Virus record (IMG/VR): IMGVR_UViG_3300018476_000013
Coordinates: 14,301-78,300 of that record
Strand: one strand, 5' to 3'
Length of the DNA: 64,000 bases
Source: a virus
Shown here: positions 7,473 through 17,547 of the stretch, piece by piece
Position numbering within the stretch: the stretch's first letter is position 1
Layout of the letters: every line of letters begins with the position of its first letter
Translations under genes and position numbers: made by a program
The notes under the pieces: generated by a model
Told to the model about the DNA's origin: nothing
Seen by the model: the letters and a program-made list of their open reading frames with translations, nothing else
Database searches by the model: none

Positions 7473-7854
7473 GTTCGCCAGGCGGGAAAAATTAGTAACC
7501 GACGCCATCCCATTCCTAGAAGAAGATGGTCACAAGATCACTTCACGATGGTTATGGGAAGAGGATGATGGAGGAGAAGGCGCGGCCCGGATCTGCCTGC
7601 AGGACATTGACAGGTCTGAGGCCGTGGTTCTTTTCACTGATCCAGTGGGGTCAAAGAATGCAGGTGGCGGTCGTTGGTTTGAAGCTGGATATGCTTACGC
7701 CAACAATCGCCGCCTGTTCATTGTGGGTGAACAAGAGGCCGTGTTCACTTACCTGCCCCTGATCACTGTTTGCCAGGACGTCGACCACTTACGGCGTGAA
7801 CTCGACAACTACAATACCGACCTCATTAAACATCTGGCGCGTCCACTCAGCTGA
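7450..7854 (+). CDS. nucleoside 2'-deoxyribosyltransferase / nucleotide N-glycosidase-like protein
   Basis: KLYLAARF, DIDRSEAVV, GRWFEAGYAYA, VFTYLP pattern. Confidence 0.75.
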   Translation: MKLYLAARFARREKLVTDAIPFLEEDGHKITSRWLWEEDDGGEGAARICLQDIDRSEAVVLFTDPVGSKNAGGGRWFEAGYAYANNRRLFIVGEQEAVFTYLPLITVCQDVDHLRRELDNYNTDLIKHLARPLS

Positions 7855-8217
7855 GGATTTCCAGGGCTCACGGTCAAGCGGGGGTGGAGTGATCACCCGC
7901 TTGATGCCCCTGGAGACAATGGACTTGGCGCATTCATTGCACGGAAACATCGTCACTGCTAATGTGCTGCCCTCTAGATCGAAGTGGGCATTGTCCAAGG
8001 CATTGCGTTCAGCGTGCTGGGTCATGGCGTACTTGGTATTCTTATCCAGCAACCGCTCAGGGCTGTCTTCTATGCCAGGCGGAAATCCATTGTAGCCGAT
8101 GGTGATGTTCCGGCGGTCTTTGCCGACAATGACTGCACCCACTCGCGTGGACGGGTCCTTGCTCCACACAGCTACATGATGGGCCAAAACAAAATATCGT
8201 TGATCCCAGTCGGTCAT
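7789..8217 (-). CDS. dCMP deaminase
   Basis: SKDPSTRVGAVIV, GYNGFP, HAERNA, PCNEC zinc motifs. Confidence 0.93.
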   Translation of the reverse strand: MTDWDQRYFVLAHHVAVWSKDPSTRVGAVIVGKDRRNITIGYNGFPPGIEDSPERLLDKNTKYAMTQHAERNALDNAHFDLEGSTLAVTMFPCNECAKSIVSRGIKRVITPPPLDREPWKSSAEWTRQMFNEVGIVVVEFTP

Positions 8218-8390
8218 CAAACAAATCCCTTTTCTTCCGCCAGCCATTCAGGCATGGTGAAGGTCCCATCTTTGTTGTCCTCGACCTGGGACTTGGGCAC
8301 CCATTCCGTTTTGATCCCATCGAAAAGACGATACGCTTTTTCCGTTTCGCCTCGGAGCTCTGCCGCTATGTCGATAAGCTTTTCGGCCAT
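8217..8390 (-). CDS. small conserved phage protein
   Basis: ETEKA..WVPKSQVE..TMPEWLAEEKG; translationally coupled. Confidence 0.7.
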   Translation of the reverse strand: MAEKLIDIAAELRGETEKAYRLFDGIKTEWVPKSQVEDNKDGTFTMPEWLAEEKGFV

Positions 8391-8758
8391 CACGCTACCA
8401 GATCCGAAAGGTCCGGGGCGGTCCAACCCATGGGCTTGACTACATCATGAGCCGATCCCCGCTTCGAGTCCGAACCATCGGCCTTGGCCTTGACTTTCTT
8501 CATGTTGGCTTCGTGAACCCGCTTCCATGCTTCATCAAAGTCAAAGCCGTGCAGGTACGCTGTGCCCAGGGCGACATAGACCAGATCGACCAAAGCATCG
8601 AGCTTGTCCTCTAATGGATACTCACAATATTCGGTCAGCTCCTCGGTCATGAATTTCAATCGGAAGGATGCCAGGTCATCCGGCAATTGCCGAGGGCCGT
8701 CAGTGTAGGCCAATCCGAATTTCTCGTGGAAATCTTTGATGTCAGAATAGAAGCTCAT
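8390..8758 (-). CDS. MazG-like / PRA-PH nucleotide pyrophosphohydrolase (all-alpha dUTPase-like)
   Basis: EELTE..DALVDLVYVALG..VHEANMKK..VVKP.GW..PDL. Confidence 0.88.
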   Translation of the reverse strand: MSFYSDIKDFHEKFGLAYTDGPRQLPDDLASFRLKFMTEELTEYCEYPLEDKLDALVDLVYVALGTAYLHGFDFDEAWKRVHEANMKKVKAKADGSDSKRGSAHDVVKPMGWTAPDLSDLVA

Positions 8759-9105
8759 ATGATCACTCGTTTCCTTGGTTGGAGAGGTGGTAGGTCTTCC
8801 AGCATAAAATCTAATGCACGGCCAATCGGGGTCGATGGCTGTCCATCAGAATCTCTTAAACACGCTTCACGCAAGTCAGTCACGGGACATCCATGCTGGA
8901 TGGCCAATGACACAGCAATGGCAGCATCAGAGGCAGCCATGTCCACTTCACTGCCGGCACGGCCACTGCTGTTAAGGAATAGTTCACCAGGTTCACCGTT
9001 GTCGTAATATCCAATGGTGACATGGTACTTCTGATTTTGATGTTCGAACTTGATCGTCTGATGAGCCCGACGATTGGGAAGTCTGTTTCGCATTACACCA
9101 CCCAT
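8755..9105 (-). CDS. stand-alone TSCPD-domain protein (class II RNR C-terminal-like)
   Basis: RNRLPNRR, PGELFL, AIAVSLAIQHG pattern. Confidence 0.75.
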   Translation of the reverse strand: MGGVMRNRLPNRRAHQTIKFEHQNQKYHVTIGYYDNGEPGELFLNSSGRAGSEVDMAASDAAIAVSLAIQHGCPVTDLREACLRDSDGQPSTPIGRALDFMLEDLPPLQPRKRVII

Positions 9106-10618: not shown

Positions 10619-10876
10619 ATGGACGTAGTAAAACTGACGGAAGAACGAGGTCAAGTCCATGGGGACTTTACCGACGTATCGGAGATCGCCCAAAGCTTAA
10701 AGGCCGTTGTCCGTAATGGCAAGTCATTCAATCAATTGACGAGGGTGCAGGTTGAAGGCCTCGACATGATCCTGCACAAGATCGCCCGGATCGTTTCGGG
10801 CAATGCCAACCACCATGATCATTGGGATGACGTCGCCGGGTATGCTCACATCGTATCGAAGAGGATCACCAAGTAA
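10619..10876 (+). CDS. DUF6378-like protein
   Basis: ERGQVHGDF..MILHKIARIVSG..HDHWDDVAGYA. Confidence 0.75.
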   Translation: MDVVKLTEERGQVHGDFTDVSEIAQSLKAVVRNGKSFNQLTRVQVEGLDMILHKIARIVSGNANHHDHWDDVAGYAHIVSKRITK

Positions 10877-12243
10877 TGTGTGGCTGGGTAGCACAAGCTG
10901 AAGTTGAAAACGATGAGCACTTCGCCGAAGCCATTCGGAGGATCAGCCATCGCGGCACTCGAGTGACCATCAAGGAAACAAACGGCAGCATCCTTGCTCA
11001 CTCCCGTTTGCCGATTGTCGGGCTGTCAGAAAAATACGACCAGCCCGTCGAGACGGATGACTGGCTGATTGCATTCTCCGGGGAGGTCCTGGACTTCAGG
11101 GAGGAAGACCCCGCTGCCGAATGTGATTTGCCTCTCGTTGTCGAGGGTTGGGAGCGGTATAAGTCCAAAGCCCTCAGGGGCCGGGATGGGTTCTGGAATA
11201 TCATCGCCATCGATAAAACAGATGGAACGCTCCACATTACATGCGATTACCTGGGACAGAAGCCAGCCTATTACCGGCAGGATGTTCTGGCTGCCGCTTC
11301 CGAACCGGATGCATTACTGCCCCTCGGGCCGGTGACATTCGATGAAGTGTACCTGGCAGCGGTGATCAAGTGGGGATACTGCCCGGAGATCGAGCGGACC
11401 CCTTACAATGAGATCAAGAAAGTCCGGCCGGGGGAGCATATCCAACTGGATGATCTTGGGACATTCGGCCAAGGACAAATCGTCGATCAATTGGTGCCCC
11501 GGCCAGGTGACCTGCGGAAGGAAATAGAACTGGCCGTCCGCCGGCGGGTAATGGCATCAGATGTGCCGGTGGCTTGCTTGTTGTCGGGTGGATTGGACAG
11601 CTCAATCGTTTATACCTTGGCCTCGTGCTATGGCCAGGTCAAGCCATATTACGTCGACCTCGGGGACAATGACATAGAAGAACGAATGGCCGTTGGTGCT
11701 GTCGCCGGCAAGGCCAAGGTCATGGAGGTCAACGGTTCTTCACTTGACATCCCGGTGATGGAGCAACTGGACTACATGCAAGAGCCCATCGACCTGGGTT
11801 CGTTGGTGCCACAGATCGCTTTGGCCCGTGTCATCCCTGAGAATGTTTGCCTGACGGGCGATGGTGCTGATGAAGTGTTCGGGGGTTATGGCAGGGCATA
11901 TCGTTATGACAGCCAGGGCTCGGATGTATTCCATGAATTGCCGGCGTGGCATCTGCCGCGGCTTGATCGGGTGATGATGAGGCACCTGATTGAAGTACGC
12001 AGCCCATTCTTGTCCCGCCGGGTGGTCGAGATTGGATTGTCCTTGCCCAGGGAATTGAGGACCGGCAAGCGGATACTCCGGGAAATCTTCCGGGACATCC
12101 TGCCTAAGAGCATTGCCGATCGGGCCAAGAAGCCATTGCGGATGCTGGGCATCAATGAAGCCCATCGCATTCATATGGTCAACGAGTTCAAACGGCGTCA
12201 TTACATCCGCAATGAAATGGATGTCGAGGAGATGAGTCGATGA
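10876..12243 (+). CDS. asparagine synthetase B-like glutamine amidotransferase
   Basis: N-terminal MCG nucleophile, HSRLPIVG, LLSGGLDSS PP-loop, LTGDGADEVFGGY, EVRSPFL. Confidence 0.9.
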   Translation: MCGWVAQAEVENDEHFAEAIRRISHRGTRVTIKETNGSILAHSRLPIVGLSEKYDQPVETDDWLIAFSGEVLDFREEDPAAECDLPLVVEGWERYKSKALRGRDGFWNIIAIDKTDGTLHITCDYLGQKPAYYRQDVLAAASEPDALLPLGPVTFDEVYLAAVIKWGYCPEIERTPYNEIKKVRPGEHIQLDDLGTFGQGQIVDQLVPRPGDLRKEIELAVRRRVMASDVPVACLLSGGLDSSIVYTLASCYGQVKPYYVDLGDNDIEERMAVGAVAGKAKVMEVNGSSLDIPVMEQLDYMQEPIDLGSLVPQIALARVIPENVCLTGDGADEVFGGYGRAYRYDSQGSDVFHELPAWHLPRLDRVMMRHLIEVRSPFLSRRVVEIGLSLPRELRTGKRILREIFRDILPKSIADRAKKPLRMLGINEAHRIHMVNEFKRRHYIRNEMDVEEMSR

Positions 12244-13745
12244 AGAAGCCAAAAGAAAAGCAATTGATTGCCGTGGGGATCACCTGCGGCATTGGTTCAT
12301 TGCTCGTGGGCGCCAAGGCCGCAGGGTTCAAGGTCGCGGGCAATGTGGAGTGGCGGAAATATTACCACCACCAGGACGAAACCGAGCGCAACACTTTCAC
12401 TGAGAATTTCCCTGGGGCGATCTTCCCCAACTCAGTGGAGCAGATGACGGAAGAAGAGTTCAGGAAGTTCAGCAACCCGGACATCGCTTTAGGCCATCCA
12501 GAATGCGGCAACTTCAGCGTGCTGAATGGCGCCCACAAGGACCGGCTCAACATGATGCTGGACCCTGCTGACATCCCGCTCTTCGTCGATCTGGTAGCCA
12601 AGCTGAAGCCCAGGTTCTTCGTGATGGACGACCTGCCCAAGTCCTTCATGGCGTACCCGATGGAAAAGTACGCAGAGAAATTGCCGGACTATGACCTGTA
12701 TCCGGAATGGATCAGCAACTGGGGCTACGGCAACGTCCAGAAGAACCGGAACCGGATGTTCATGCTGGGCGCGCTGCGGGCCGAGCGGTGGGCTTTCCGG
12801 CCGGGTGAGCAGGAACATACCCTGACCGTGGAAGATGTCATCGGTGACCTTGCTAAGCCATCTGTGAGGGGCAATATGCCCAATCATGACCCCCACGACC
12901 TGAAGTCCGTTTGTGCCAAGGCCCTGAACCTGGGTGAGTGGCGGAAACGGAATACCTGGGGCGAGGTCCAGAAGTACTTCGCCGACAAGGGCGGCGGGTT
13001 CACGCTGGAATATACCAGGGATGACGGCAAGCGGCTGAAGAGGATCGGCTTCCTCAAGGGCCATTGGGACGGGCCATCGCATGTGCTGACTGGTGGCAAT
13101 GCCATCCTGCACCACAAGCGCAATGAACCCTACACCATCCGGGAGCGGGCGCGCATTCAGGGCTTCCCTGATGACTTCGTCTTCTATGGTGCCAAGCTGA
13201 ACCCCAAGGGGGAATGGGAGCATGATGGTGACGGCACCATGGTCAAGCAGACCGGCAAGGCCATGCCAGTGCAGTTTGCTGAATATGTGTCCAAGCAGAT
13301 TGCTGCATTCATCAACAAGGAAGAGTTCGAGTCCAGTGGCCGCCGGGTGATCCCGCCCAATGAATACGTCGACCAGGCCAAGCAATGGTACTGCCAGAAT
13401 GTCGGCTATTCAGTGCAGAAGAAAGCATGTGGGGAATGCTGGCTCTTCAACAAATGCAGCATCAGGTCCGAGAAATACCAAATCGGTCCGCGCGCGCATA
13501 CCACAAAATCCGTTGTGGAAGAATGCCCCACAAATCAGCGAATTACGGGGGCTGTTTTAGGGGGAAATACTAGGACGCGTCAAGGGGGGCTCATGCCCTC
13601 TGCCAAAAAGCCTAATGAAATCAAGGTCCGTGAGGCCAAGAACACGGGAGGGACCAATAAAAAAACGCCCTCCCGAGATCCCCGAACTGGCCAGTCCAGG
13701 AAAACTGTCCATCAACCCATCGAAACCACCATTGAAGAGTTTTGA
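12240..13745 (+). CDS. divergent C5-cytosine DNA methyltransferase homolog (candidate carboxymethyltransferase)
   Basis: Motif I TCGIG, motif IV GHPECGNFS, motif VI VMDDL, motif VIII QKNRNR, motif IX TIRERARIQGFPDDF, motif X KQTGKAMPV; C-terminal Cys cluster. Confidence 0.88.
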   Translation: MKKPKEKQLIAVGITCGIGSLLVGAKAAGFKVAGNVEWRKYYHHQDETERNTFTENFPGAIFPNSVEQMTEEEFRKFSNPDIALGHPECGNFSVLNGAHKDRLNMMLDPADIPLFVDLVAKLKPRFFVMDDLPKSFMAYPMEKYAEKLPDYDLYPEWISNWGYGNVQKNRNRMFMLGALRAERWAFRPGEQEHTLTVEDVIGDLAKPSVRGNMPNHDPHDLKSVCAKALNLGEWRKRNTWGEVQKYFADKGGGFTLEYTRDDGKRLKRIGFLKGHWDGPSHVLTGGNAILHHKRNEPYTIRERARIQGFPDDFVFYGAKLNPKGEWEHDGDGTMVKQTGKAMPVQFAEYVSKQIAAFINKEEFESSGRRVIPPNEYVDQAKQWYCQNVGYSVQKKACGECWLFNKCSIRSEKYQIGPRAHTTKSVVEECPTNQRITGAVLGGNTRTRQGGLMPSAKKPNEIKVREAKNTGGTNKKTPSRDPRTGQSRKTVHQPIETTIEEF

Positions 13746-13766: not shown

Positions 13767-14663
13767 ATGCACGGCGAGAAAGTTCACATTGTCAAGGGGC
13801 AGACCCCCGCTGATTATCACTGCACCTGCAAATTCTGCCAGAAGGCCCTGGGGGAATTGTTGAAGCCTGATGGGACATATTACAGCCGGCTGGAGCGCCG
13901 GAAGTATTATGACCCCGCTGAGTCGGGCAAGAAGGAAGGGGCGCACATTGCCAAGACCCCGCTCCACATTGCCCGCTGGGCCATCCAGAACTATTCTAAA
14001 CCAGGTGACTGGGTTCTTGATCCGACCATCGGCGCAGGCACCACGGCCGTCGAGGCCATCACCCAAGGCCGCAACGTGGCCGGAATGGAAATCGAATTCG
14101 GCGAAGTGCTGAAGAAGAATATCCAGGCCGCACTGGTACTGGCCAATGGGTCGAAGCCCAAAGCCAAGATCGGCCATGGCGATGCCCGCAACATCAGTGC
14201 CTTCCTCGACAAGGCCAAAGTTGAGAAGGTGCAGTTGGTCATCAACAATCCACCCTACTCAGGCGATGCCTCGATGCCGTCGCCCTCCAAGGAAGGACGG
14301 GGTGCCGCTTACCGGGACAAGGAAACCTATTTTTTCTACGACAAGTCCCTGCCGAACTTGGCGTTCCTGAAAGAGGGCCAAGAGTATTGGGATGAGATGA
14401 CAAAAATCTACAAGGCATGTGCTGACCGACTTGAAGTCGGCGGTCACTTCGTCATCGGCATTAAGGACATGAGCAAGAAGAAGCAGCCTTATCTTCTGCA
14501 CAAGATGTTCTGTGAAATCCTGGAAGAGATGAAGTTAAAATTTGTTGGCACGGCGTTCCTGAACCATTACCCTCGAACCCTTCACTTGAACACGTGCGAG
14601 AAGTTTTATGGCTTCAAGCCGCCGTTCTTCCAGACCATCAACGTATTTAAGAAAGCAAAGTAA
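13767..14663 (+). CDS. amino (N6-adenine/N4-cytosine) methyltransferase
   Basis: VLDPTIGAGTT SAM-binding motif followed by NNPPY. Confidence 0.87.
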   Translation: MHGEKVHIVKGQTPADYHCTCKFCQKALGELLKPDGTYYSRLERRKYYDPAESGKKEGAHIAKTPLHIARWAIQNYSKPGDWVLDPTIGAGTTAVEAITQGRNVAGMEIEFGEVLKKNIQAALVLANGSKPKAKIGHGDARNISAFLDKAKVEKVQLVINNPPYSGDASMPSPSKEGRGAAYRDKETYFFYDKSLPNLAFLKEGQEYWDEMTKIYKACADRLEVGGHFVIGIKDMSKKKQPYLLHKMFCEILEEMKLKFVGTAFLNHYPRTLHLNTCEKFYGFKPPFFQTINVFKKAK

Positions 14664-15226
14664 TGGCCAAGATGAATTACGGACCCCGGTTCGGCGGCAG
14701 TGCAAAATCGCTCTTCAGTTACGATGAGCGAGTGGATAAGGCGATGCAGGCCGACACCATAAGGATGGCGGCGGTCATGAAAAATCAGCCGCAATACAAA
14801 AAGGAGTTAAGGGGTATTGCGACTGCAAAAAGAACTAGGCAGCGTGCTGACGCAGCCCGTAACAACGGCCGTAAGGAATCTGAAATCCGAATGGCCGAAG
14901 CGTTGCGCAAAGTTGTAGGCATCCTCGAAATGCACATGGATGACCTGATGCAATACACCCAAGTTGGGGGTGAACGGATCATCAATCAAACCAACATTCA
15001 CAACGCCATTGTGATGCTGAGGACCAAGTGCGGTCTCAACTTCGTTGGCAGCGAGCAATATAACCAGCGGATTAAAGCTGACCCCGGGCAAGTGATACTG
15101 ACGCTTGAGCAAAAAGAAGATGAGCGTATCCGTCGGATGGAAGAACAAAAGCAAGAACGGAATTATAACCTGAAGCGTATCGCCAAAGAGTTTGCAGCCT
15201 ATCAATTGAAAAAGGAAAATACATAA
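14663..15226 (+). CDS. hypothetical protein
   Basis: TAATG coupling at both ends. Confidence 0.65.
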   Translation: MAKMNYGPRFGGSAKSLFSYDERVDKAMQADTIRMAAVMKNQPQYKKELRGIATAKRTRQRADAARNNGRKESEIRMAEALRKVVGILEMHMDDLMQYTQVGGERIINQTNIHNAIVMLRTKCGLNFVGSEQYNQRIKADPGQVILTLEQKEDERIRRMEEQKQERNYNLKRIAKEFAAYQLKKENT

Positions 15227-15537
15227 TGGTTGAGATGACTACCGAAGGTTACAACGACATCAAGTTGACGGCATGGGCCAGCCACCTGACAGAAAGTCTG
15301 GCGGCGGCCTTTGCTATTTCCCTGGCCAAGGATCGGGGATGGGAGCCGGAAGAAATTGCTCGGGTGCTGAACCTGGTGTTTCTATCTGGCGGCAAATCAG
15401 GAGTGCCCCGTCACCCAGGGGCTTTGAATATCTCTGTCTTGACCCTTCGGAATTATTTGCGGCATGAGATCGCCACTCCCGAAGAGCTCAAGCATTTCAC
15501 CCAAACTCCCATCCAGAAAAGGATCATTGAGGAATGA
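15226..15537 (+). CDS. hypothetical protein
   Basis: Coupled ORF. Confidence 0.6.
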   Translation: MVEMTTEGYNDIKLTAWASHLTESLAAAFAISLAKDRGWEPEEIARVLNLVFLSGGKSGVPRHPGALNISVLTLRNYLRHEIATPEELKHFTQTPIQKRIIEE

Positions 15538-15743
15538 CTAGCAAGAATGATCGGCAGTTTACCCATCCAAACTTCGGCACGGAAGTCCGAGTTGAGGTCG
15601 TTGATAACGAAGTCGCGTTGGTCTTTGTTGCGTCAAGTCCGGACAAAGCAGGACATTTTGCTGATTATCTTCTGGAGCAATTAAAAAGTGGCGCCATCAA
15701 CATCACGCTGATGGGCAAGCCTACTGGTATTGTGGAGAGTTGA
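15534..15743 (+). CDS. hypothetical protein
   Basis: ATGA overlap. Confidence 0.6.
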   Translation: MTSKNDRQFTHPNFGTEVRVEVVDNEVALVFVASSPDKAGHFADYLLEQLKSGAINITLMGKPTGIVES

Positions 15744-15799
15744 AGGGATTTTAGTTTACATACGAGGTGGACGGGTTATGATGTGACCCGTCCACTTCA
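15741..15799 (+). promoter_or_regulatory. promoter with palindrome over the -10 box
   Basis: TGAAGGG..TTTACA-16 nt-TATGAT; GTGGACGGGT / ACCCGTCCAC inverted repeat. Confidence 0.6.
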
Positions 15800-15812
15800 A
15801 ATATGAGGACTA

Positions 15813-16520
15813 ATGACCCAACCACTTTTTGAATTCTGTCCGACGATAGTCTGCGGGCAAACGAAAAGCGGAGTCAGCATTACTTGCGGCCACTGTTCGA
15901 AGGGAGAAGTCATCGCCGTCAATAAGATGAGACGGCATGGCGAAGACGATTCGGGGATCATTGAACGAATGCTCGCCGACAAATTCGAACGGATAGGCTG
16001 GAAGGTTGGTAATGCCCCCAAGCATCACCGCTGCCCCGCTTGCTTCACAGCTATCAAATCAGCAGCCATCAGGAAAAAGGAAGAGCGCATGTCCGAGAAA
16101 GTAGTGCCCATCACTGCCACCCCCAATGCTCCAGCTAATGCGCCAGTCAATGGGACACCCCAACCACCGAGACCCATGACCCGTGATGAGCGTTACCTGA
16201 TCTTCAAAAAAATCGATGAGCACTATATCGGGGAGACCGTCGGCTACCATGAGAGTTGGAACGACGACAAGATCGCCAAGGACCTGGGCGTGCCCGTGGC
16301 GTTCGTGGCGACCGTGCGTGAAGAAAGCTTTGGCCCCAACATCGACGAACACTCGGTCAAGGTAATGACCGACGCCAAGACCTTGCTGGCTGACATCCGG
16401 CAAGCGGCCTCTGACATGGGGCCGATGATCAAACAGATTGAACCGTTCATGAAACACCTGCATGAATTGGTCGCCCGAAGTTCATCCATTGAAAAGAGCC
16501 TGAAGGAGTTGCAGCGATGA
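15813..16520 (+). CDS. hypothetical protein with zinc finger and HTH-like segment
   Basis: CGHC...CPAC; WNDDKIAKDLGVPVAFV. Confidence 0.7.
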   Translation: MTQPLFEFCPTIVCGQTKSGVSITCGHCSKGEVIAVNKMRRHGEDDSGIIERMLADKFERIGWKVGNAPKHHRCPACFTAIKSAAIRKKEERMSEKVVPITATPNAPANAPVNGTPQPPRPMTRDERYLIFKKIDEHYIGETVGYHESWNDDKIAKDLGVPVAFVATVREESFGPNIDEHSVKVMTDAKTLLADIRQAASDMGPMIKQIEPFMKHLHELVARSSSIEKSLKELQR

Positions 16521-16705
16521 CTGGTTACCCAAAAGGAGAATTCCCTGAGATCGTTTACCAAGGGGGTCAGACAGGTTGGTGTCTGACATCCCATAAGAGT
16601 TATGAGTTCGAAGACCACATGGAAGCAGTTATTGCTTTGTTGCCGGAAGGGCCGGTTAAAGAAAACCAGATCGAGTGGTTCAAAGAACTCAAGAGGCGGA
16701 AATGA
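16517..16705 (+). CDS. small hypothetical protein
   Basis: ATGA overlaps at both ends. Confidence 0.55.
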   Translation: MTGYPKGEFPEIVYQGGQTGWCLTSHKSYEFEDHMEAVIALLPEGPVKENQIEWFKELKRRK

Positions 16706-17547
16706 AATACCTCGGCGAATATCTGTCTTTCAAACCTGTTGCCAGATTGATCGAAGGCCAGATCAAGGAAGCACCCCCTGTCCGCACAGAACGCTGGCAG
16801 GGGGTGGCGCATAACCAGGACACGCGTGAACTGCTGAACGCCTCATTCATGGTGGATCTGCAGTGCATCGAGGATCTGGATCATTGGCGGAAGGACATCA
16901 AGACCAATCTGCCTTGGGCTGATGACCACTTCATGGAGCGGATCGGCGGCCAGCCATTGAACCCTGGTGTTCAGTGGGCGAACTGGCCGTGGTCCCGGTC
17001 AGCAGCCAACTTCAAGCAGGACAGGTTCAATCATACCTACATGGAAAGGCTCTGGCCCAAGTTTGCCCGCCGGACTGCTGATGGCCGGTTGCCGATGGGC
17101 AAGGGTGCAAGGAAGTATCCGCAGACAGACAACCGGCCAAAGCTGGGGGTCGGCTGGGCTTATGGGGACTTGCTGGATCTGGTGGAGTTGCTGGTCAAAG
17201 AACCCCACACTCGCCAGGGATGGATACCGCTGTTCTTCCCTGAAGATACGGGCATCGGGGATGGCGGCCGCAAGCCCTGCACCCTTGGCTATCAGATCAT
17301 TGTCCGTGATGGCAGAGCCCATATCTATTATCCCCTGCGGTCATGTGACTTCATCCGGCACTGGGCAGATGATTGCTACTTGGCTGTGCGCCTGTTGCTG
17401 TGGGTCATCGATGAATGCCGCAAGAGGTCGGAGTTCTGGAAGAACATCGCACCAGGCACTTATTCGATGCACATGACTTCTCTTCACATCTTTGAAACGG
17501 ATCTTAAGACCAATGAGCAAGCCGAGGCCACCGCAACAAGTATTTGA
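16702..17547 (+). CDS. thymidylate synthase-family protein, dCMP-type (hydroxy)methylase candidate
   Basis: KPCT catalytic Cys, RSCDFIRHWADD (Asp at the ThyA Asn177 position), SLHIF. Confidence 0.85.
   Translation: MKYLGEYLSFKPVARLIEGQIKEAPPVRTERWQGVAHNQDTRELLNASFMVDLQCIEDLDHWRKDIKTNLPWADDHFMERIGGQPLNPGVQWANWPWSRSAANFKQDRFNHTYMERLWPKFARRTADGRLPMGKGARKYPQTDNRPKLGVGWAYGDLLDLVELLVKEPHTRQGWIPLFFPEDTGIGDGGRKPCTLGYQIIVRDGRAHIYYPLRSCDFIRHWADDCYLAVRLLLWVIDECRKRSEFWKNIAPGTYSMHMTSLHIFETDLKTNEQAEATATSI

Follow-up and report, generated by a model that had tools for sequence, protein, structure and literature searches.

An AsnB-like amidotransferase and a Lys-type C5-methyltransferase-fold protein as candidate tailoring enzymes of a probable thymidylate synthase-based cytosine replacement pathway in phages

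Base hypermodifications of phages defeat restriction and CRISPR nucleases, and phage hypermodification has provided tools for epigenome sequencing such as glucosyltransferases, TET-like enzymes, and carboxymethyltransferases. Here, we describe two overlapping phage genes, one coding for an AsnB-like glutamine-dependent amidotransferase and the other for a protein with the fold of DNA cytosine C5-methyltransferases (C5-MTases). They are found in a stretch of 64,000 nucleotides (the window), bases 14301 to 78300 of the 78.3-kb IMG/VR virus record IMGVR_UViG_3300018476_000013, which is estimated to be 92% complete. A first-pass annotation of this DNA had proposed that the C5-MTase homolog installs a carboxymethyl group on a pyrimidine and that the AsnB homolog amidates it. 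Our analysis points, with modest confidence, to both being optional tailoring enzymes of a DNA cytosine replacement pathway built on a thymidylate synthase (TS) homolog, and not to a carboxymethylation of plain cytosine fed by CmoA.

The closest described system is that of Synechococcus phage S-B43 (Yang et al., Nat Commun 2025, PMC12783734; PDB 8YF3), in which CmoA makes carboxy-S-adenosylmethionine (carboxy-SAM), CmoX, which is homologous to C5-MTases but has Arg where these have the motif X Asn, writes 5-carboxymethylcytosine, and CmoY, an AsnB-type ligase, adds glycine. The same study predicted the plain amide as the product of a second ligase cluster, which has a glutaminase domain, reported 4257 CmoA genes for 5615 CmoX contigs, and found that the host CmoA suffices for SpCmoX in E. 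coli. As a concept, the formation of 5-carboxymethylcytosine and of its amide in phage DNA is therefore chemically sound but not new, having already been published (PMC12783734); a literature search for a cytosine pathway involving AsnB, TS, and C5-MTase proteins returned nothing beyond that work. Among engineered enzymes, M.MpeI N374K and the analogous change in M.CviPI lead to the use of carboxy-SAM (Kohli laboratory; PMC13288465), which agrees with what the first-pass annotation had stated for M.MpeI, while its parallel statement on Dcm N436K could not be confirmed. The other relevant precedent is the T4-type pre-replicative replacement of cytosine, with a dCTPase, a deoxycytidine monophosphate (dCMP) hydroxymethylase, and a dCMP deaminase, followed by tailoring at the DNA level. 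MetaGPA (PMC8670742) identified TS(D177), PRA-PH, and dCMP deaminase as the signature of cytosine-modified phage DNA, the tailoring enzyme in that case being a carbamoyltransferase.

In the window, both genes are located on the + strand and overlap by ATGA (12240-12243), as first annotated; the genome of phage S-B43 has the same arrangement, with an AsnB-family ligase gene immediately before the MTase gene and overlapping it. The AsnB-like gene (10876-12243, 455 amino acids) codes for a class-II glutaminase followed by an Asn_synthase domain (Pfam GATase_6/7 and Asn_synthase, 4.4e-38), with an MCG start (Cys2) and intact SGGLDS and GDGADE motifs, again in agreement with the initial description. 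The second gene (12240-13745, 501 amino acids) matched DNA_methylase PF00145 (3.5e-19, 69.8 bits versus a cut-off of 22) but missed the NCBIfam dcm superfamily cut-off (41.4 bits versus 100.65). It has the motif I GITCGIGS, the catalytic Cys89 (12504-12506) within GHPECG, DDL instead of ENV at the motif VI position (12627-12635), a retained QxRxR motif, and Lys340 (codon AAG, 13257-13259) replacing the motif X Asn. The latter equivalence, noted in the first-pass annotation, was recovered in two alignments: HMMER aligned ...TGKAMPV with ...IGNAVPV of M.HaeIII, setting K340 on the motif X Asn, and MAFFT placed it on Arg350 of SpCmoX and on the Arg of gp123 from Streptomyces phage TurkishDelight. 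The AlphaFold2 model (predicted local distance difference test [pLDDT] of 85.5, with residues 1-412 confident and 413-501 disordered) has the two-domain C5-MTase fold, matching M.HaeIII, M.HhaI, DNMT1, and the 8YF3 CmoX at a probability of 1.00. After motif X there is a conserved module with four Cys (C385, C397, C400, and C406; about 13392-13457), which may bind zinc, and a basic tail of 89 residues predicted to be disordered (13476-13742, residues 413-501); neither is present in canonical C5-MTases.

A HMMER search against 1.84 billion representatives recovered a distinct family, hereafter Lys-type, of about 100 clusters at E<1e-30. Scanning viral contigs with the single protein gave no close relative, and loci were retrieved instead with an alignment-based profile; family counts below refer to 40 viral loci or records (41 with the present genome). 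The K340 column of the 40-member alignment contains K32 R4 N2 Q1 A1, and the family motifs are GHPxCG (not PPCQ), D(D/N)LP (not ENV), QxRxR, and QTG(K>R)xMP. At motif IV, the Cys is invariant, the preceding Pro is replaced by E/D/S/K, and the following Gln by an invariant Gly; at motif VI, Glu-Asn-Val is replaced family-wide by D-D/N-L, with Asp in place of Glu, and the Gly-Asn of motif X reads Gly-Lys. Among the SAM-binding residues, G17 and G19 are conserved, as is the acidic character of position 37 (E37), so that the family likely binds a nucleoside cofactor. Several members (P0002, P0004, P0008, P0028, L041:9953-12112, and L089:5794-8253) carry inteins (HINT plus a DUF559/MTES_1575 homing endonuclease) inserted at the motif IV catalytic Cys, which argues that this site is functionally essential. 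The family is essentially confined to phages, since among the contigs of 185,579 species genomes the profile found only three loci: a binned complete phage contig, a short contig of a metagenome-assembled genome (MAG), and a frameshifted remnant. The last one, a partial Lys-type copy (L090:9905-10782) in a 2.78-Mb alphaproteobacterial MAG contig, is the sole chromosomal trace in that set.

The Lys-type enzyme resembles S-B43 CmoX in its fold, in the basic residue taking the place of the motif X Asn, and in the small residue replacing the Gln of PCQ (Ser/Ala in CmoX, Gly here). However, it is only 22% identical to SpCmoX and has Lys and not Arg, HPEC and not SPPC, and DDL and not ENV, so the published CmoX signature (SPPC plus Arg350) is not found at the aligned positions. 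Lys at the Arg350 position is functionally plausible by analogy with the engineered MTases, which have Lys at the same site. Those enzymes, though, are single changes in canonical proteins supplied with carboxy-SAM, whereas here motifs IV and VI differ too and no source of the cofactor is evident.

The AsnB-like protein missed every NCBIfam AsnB cut-off (e.g., TIGR01536, 189 bits versus 267). Its clade keeps the glutaminase residues C1, R49, G75, E76, and D98, the PP-loop SGGLDS, and K429 and K449, while the Asp pocket is altered (T322D, K376V/I, and D384H), the changes being invariant in 79 members. Because these pocket residues are replaced and the curated cut-offs are missed, the protein is, as judged from its sequence, a phage-specific clade and not a bona fide asparagine synthetase. 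Unlike SpCmoY, it has a glutaminase domain. The closest relative in a cultured phage is TurkishDelight gp124 (27% identity over the full length), which belongs to a cluster formed by ParB, an Arg-type CmoX (gp123), a glutamine amidotransferase (gp124), and CmoA (gp125). This is probably the second ligase cluster of PMC12783734, although the identity of A0A7T0Q3R0 with gp124 could not be confirmed. The two loci share a full-length AsnB-like protein with a Cys2 glutaminase beside a C5-MTase-fold gene, but gp124 forms a long separate branch, its partners are the Arg-type CmoX and CmoA, and its genome lacks the TS homolog with Asp at position 177, TS(D), that accompanies the genes described here.

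In the window, TS(D) is encoded at 16675-17547 (+; phrog_160, 1.5e-22). The protein keeps the Cys146 equivalent and Asp169 and has Asp at N177, Arg at L143, and Thr at H147, with the motifs KPCT and RSCDFIRHWADD. Asp at N177 was found in 47 of 47 aligned TS-like sequences (the window and 46 loci), and the best PDB match was the CMP hydroxymethylase MilA (1.4e-5). PF00303 did not detect it, for which reason our own TS profile was used in the TS(D) searches. Two further genes on the - strand complete the set: a MazG/PRA-PH-type all-alpha NTP pyrophosphohydrolase (8390-8758; Pfam PRA-PH, 4.1e-11), which likely supplies dCMP from dCTP, and a dCMP deaminase (7789-8247; Pfam dCMP_cyt_deam_1, 9.7e-22). 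Thus, as in T4-type and MetaGPA systems (PMC8670742), an Asp177 TS homolog, a PRA-PH/MazG pyrophosphatase, and a dCMP deaminase appear in one module with variable tailoring enzymes alongside. The differences are that the TS subfamily has Arg at L143 and escapes PF00303, and that the tailoring enzymes would be a C5-MTase-fold protein and an AsnB-family amidotransferase, neither of which is known to act on 5-hydroxymethylcytosine (5hmC). The position equivalent to L143 is an invariant Arg. Methylases have Leu there and known hydroxymethylases Asp/Glu, so that this residue does not indicate the product class. The 5-hydroxy-dCMP synthases (RB69 gp48, DLP3 gp80, and HY126 AfhB; PMC13326640) are likewise TS-fold enzymes acting on dCMP in phage hypermodification, but a route of this kind was rejected, given that their diagnostic D169N is absent here (RSCD) and Asp169 is kept by all TS copies.

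The genomic company of the Lys-type family reinforced this picture. TS(D) was present in 36 of the 40 loci, the remaining four being truncated contigs, usually directly downstream of the MTase gene and overlapping it. A dCMP deaminase appeared in 31, usually right after TS(D), and an all-alpha dNTP pyrophosphatase (dUTPase_2-type) was found directly upstream of the MTase gene in 20. Wherever the contig permitted the check, no Lys-type MTase was seen without TS(D). Among 40 more distant C5-MTase loci, none had an AsnB-like gene, and the seven with a TS(D) neighbor all had Lys in the motif X column. Conversely, 70 of the 80 nearest TS(D) loci had neither add-on, and in 50 such TS(D) records the sole PF00145 match was again Lys-type. 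Canonical C5-MTases are thus absent from TS(D) phages, which is what an already occupied C5 would lead one to expect.

The coupling between MTase and AsnB proposed at the outset was borne out only in part. About 30 of the 40 Lys-type loci have an AsnB-like gene, but the AsnB-like clade was also found in 51 further viral loci with neither a Lys-type MTase nor CmoA, in 25 of which the AsnB-like gene directly follows TS(D). The one AsnB-like lineage lacking a nearby TS encodes TS(D) at a distance on its contig (L137 and L242 are one contig). The clade was monophyletic, with gp124 as a long sister branch, and members with and without the MTase were interleaved, forcing at least five changes (the tree was built with FastTree only). 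The AsnB-like gene is therefore independent of the MTase, and its occurrence in MTase-free loci implies that its substrate exists without the MTase. TS(D) is the core of the cassette, each of the two tailoring enzymes depends on it, and they are gained and lost independently of each other. In a group of phage records of ~50 to 160 kb (L103-L141, some incomplete), a small P-loop protein and several uncharacterized proteins flank the AsnB-like gene (e.g., L141:9432-9998 and L120:6878-7576), with TS(D) far off on the same contig.

Cultured relatives sharing the TS core are Serratia phage Serbin, Mycobacterium phage Muddy, and Pseudomonas phage PMBT14, and Brevundimonas phage Strzyga is a further cultured TS(D) phage. 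The module of Serbin and Muddy contains a dNMP kinase, dUTPase_2, a hypothetical protein, TS(D), deaminase, and PolA, the hypothetical protein occupying the slot upstream of TS(D) that is held here by the Lys-type MTase. It turned out to be a second, very divergent TS-fold paralog (AlphaFold2 pLDDT of 94.6; Foldseek top matches HY126 dCMP hydroxylase, MilA, and T4 dCH), with the motif GHCMQS...YRSTE..QKF.AD; examples are L254:3120-3929 (Serbin gp51) and L255:2090-2983 (Muddy gp47). An hhalign comparison of its profile with the TS profile was not significant, the TS fold being shown by structure prediction. We found the paralog in 49 TS-only loci, whereas the 44 Lys-type or AsnB-only records searched, the present genome among them, all lacked it. 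It is mutually exclusive with both the Lys-type MTase and the AsnB-like gene. TS(D) thus has two alternative partners that exclude each other, both Cys-dependent and C5-directed but of different folds. Most TS(D) phages have this unannotated gp51-like gene immediately before TS(D), and it has relatives in cultured and therapeutic phages.

Since TS(D177), PRA-PH, and dCMP deaminase form the published signature of cytosine modification, we favor the AsnB-like and Lys-type enzymes acting on the TS product. Judging from family knowledge and the signature residues tested, the MazG-type pyrophosphatase would supply dCMP and the Asp177-type TS homolog would add a one-carbon unit to its C5, most likely giving 5-hydroxymethyl-dCMP, while the dCMP deaminase would feed the dUMP/dTMP branch. 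The modified nucleotide would then be phosphorylated and incorporated at replication. On DNA, the Lys-type enzyme would bind and flip the substituted cytosine, using Cys89 and a SAM-like cofactor. Gly90, which replaces Gln, would accommodate the C5 side chain, and Lys340, which replaces Asn, would put a charge beside it. Finally, the AsnB-like enzyme would hydrolyze glutamine, adenylate an oxygen function of the side chain, and deliver ammonia, either amidating a carboxylate or aminating an activated hydroxymethyl. To our knowledge, the adenylation target is a carboxylate in every characterized AsnB-family member. The final base would bear an amide or an amine, any single structure for it being unlikely. 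It is also possible, if rather doubtful, that the Lys-type enzyme is the first natural C5-MTase-fold protein acting on an already C5-substituted DNA cytosine (e.g., 5hmC), in which covalent activation of C6 by Cys would allow the side chain to be exchanged or extended. The enzyme would then be functionally interchangeable with a TS-fold paralog doing the same job at the nucleotide level and, together with the AsnB-family enzyme, would yield an unprecedented amide- or amine-bearing cytosine in widespread phages.

Several observations weigh against tailoring of a TS product. A C5-substituted cytosine is not C5-alkylatable by the classical MTase mechanism, and hence the invariant Cys would need an unprecedented role. 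Experimentally, Lys or Arg at the motif X position has been linked only to the use of carboxy-SAM, and the relative of the AsnB-like protein with the nearest characterized context is linked to a CmoX/CmoA system. Given the Arg at L143, TS(D) could make 5-methyl- rather than 5-hydroxymethyl-dCMP. Besides, Lys also occupies the motif X column in a third MTase-like group (HPDC-GHSS...TK.PPY, about 12 loci), most of whose loci lack a neighboring TS, and because many loci share the replication genes PolA, SNF2, and DUF2800, the co-occurrence could in part reflect lineage inertia.

The use of carboxy-SAM is central to a host-fed form of the route originally proposed, in which the Lys-type enzyme would be a CmoX-like carboxymethyltransferase acting on plain cytosine with carboxy-SAM from the host, the AsnB-like enzyme would amidate 5-carboxymethylcytosine to 5-carbamoylmethylcytosine, and the TS homolog would belong to unrelated nucleotide metabolism. 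In its favor are the alignment of K340 with the basic residue of SpCmoX and with the Asn changed in M.MpeI and M.CviPI, the small residue next to the catalytic Cys, the ligase-then-MTase order with overlap, the sufficiency of host CmoA for SpCmoX, the position of gp124 between CmoX and CmoA, and the amide predicted for the glutamine-type ligase cluster. Against it speaks the supply of the cofactor. CmoA, which the first-pass annotation had not recognized in the window, was not found in the whole 78.3-kb record either, nor in any of the 40 whole related records (nine with completeness of ≥90%), while an S-B43-like positive control was detected; this contrasts with the published ratio of CmoA genes to CmoX contigs. 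Alcaligenes phage Afa-NA1, which is CmoA positive, was considered as a relative and rejected. Moreover, this TS subfamily is absent from four CmoA-encoding phages, S-B43 among the phages lacking TS(D), whereas TS(D) is an obligate neighbor here. By linkage, the AsnB-like clade goes with TS(D) and not with CmoX plus CmoA, being common without either a Lys-type MTase or CmoX, and little unmodified cytosine would be left if TS(D) replaces it. On the host side, none of the three MAGs holding Lys-type loci had CmoA. In the family of one MAG, which contains a related phage contig, none of 26 genomes passed the curated CmoA cut-off, and in that of another 6 of 26 did, the host link being weak in both. 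The present gene pair is not a CmoA/CmoX/CmoY system, the proposed carboxy-SAM pathway has little genomic support, and we regard the host-fed route on plain cytosine as improbable.

Even less probable, in our view, is a hybrid in which the Lys-type enzyme would use host carboxy-SAM on the TS-derived base, e.g., by O-carboxymethylating 5-hydroxymethylcytosine in a DNA parallel of CmoB acting on ho5U, with the AsnB-like enzyme amidating the product where both are present. It would keep the experimental meaning of Lys/Arg at motif X and account for the obligate TS(D) link, but it still needs carboxy-SAM with no phage CmoA, leaves the AsnB-like genes of MTase-free phages unexplained, and does not require the invariant Cys89 for O-alkylation. 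The host evidence is too weak to decide between this hybrid and the host-fed route on plain cytosine. Finally, a divergent but ordinary SAM-dependent orphan C5-MTase, paired or fused with an N6/N4 MTase for anti-restriction and accompanied by an auxiliary asparagine synthetase, is very unlikely: PF00145 and Asn_synthase pass their gathering scores, the SAM-binding residues are conserved, and the N6/N4 association is common, but across the family other residues stand in for the Pro of motif IV, the ENV of motif VI, and the Asn of motif X, engineered Asn-to-Lys MTases reportedly use carboxy-SAM (PMC13288465), TS(D) phages otherwise carry no C5-MTase, and the AsnB-like gene, with its replaced Asp pocket and missed cut-offs, is tightly coupled to TS(D).

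If both enzymes tailor a TS-derived cytosine, the cassette, which is frequent in viromes (>130 loci retrieved), would join two enzyme families that are not known to act after a dCMP-modifying TS homolog. Its product, once worked out, would add a new DNA base and could add a new reaction type to the C5-MTase fold, and the cassette would show how far carboxy-SAM use can be predicted from Lys/Arg at motif X.

Other genes surround the pair in the window. Directly upstream of the AsnB-like gene is a small DUF6378 protein (10619-10876, +; Pfam PF19905, 3.1e-8), homologs of which are again found upstream in some related loci. The Lys-type gene is followed by an N6/N4 DNA methyltransferase of 298 amino acids (13767-14663, +; Pfam N6_N4_Mtase, 3.9e-17). 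This domain is fused to the C terminus of the Lys-type enzyme in the homologs P0003, P0005, P0009, P0021, P0025, and P0008, and single ORFs (open reading frames) with both domains occur in L011, L020, and L037. Between the SNF2 helicase and the MazG gene, a 116-amino-acid ORF (8755-9105, -) matches only a stretch of ~75 residues near the C-terminal part of B12-dependent ribonucleotide reductases (NF005122, 1.1e-11). Four ORFs of 187, 103, 69, and 235 amino acids separate the N6/N4 MTase from the TS homolog (14663-16520); those of 187 and 235 amino acids had no Pfam or NCBIfam match, and the 235-amino-acid product has a Cys-rich N terminus.

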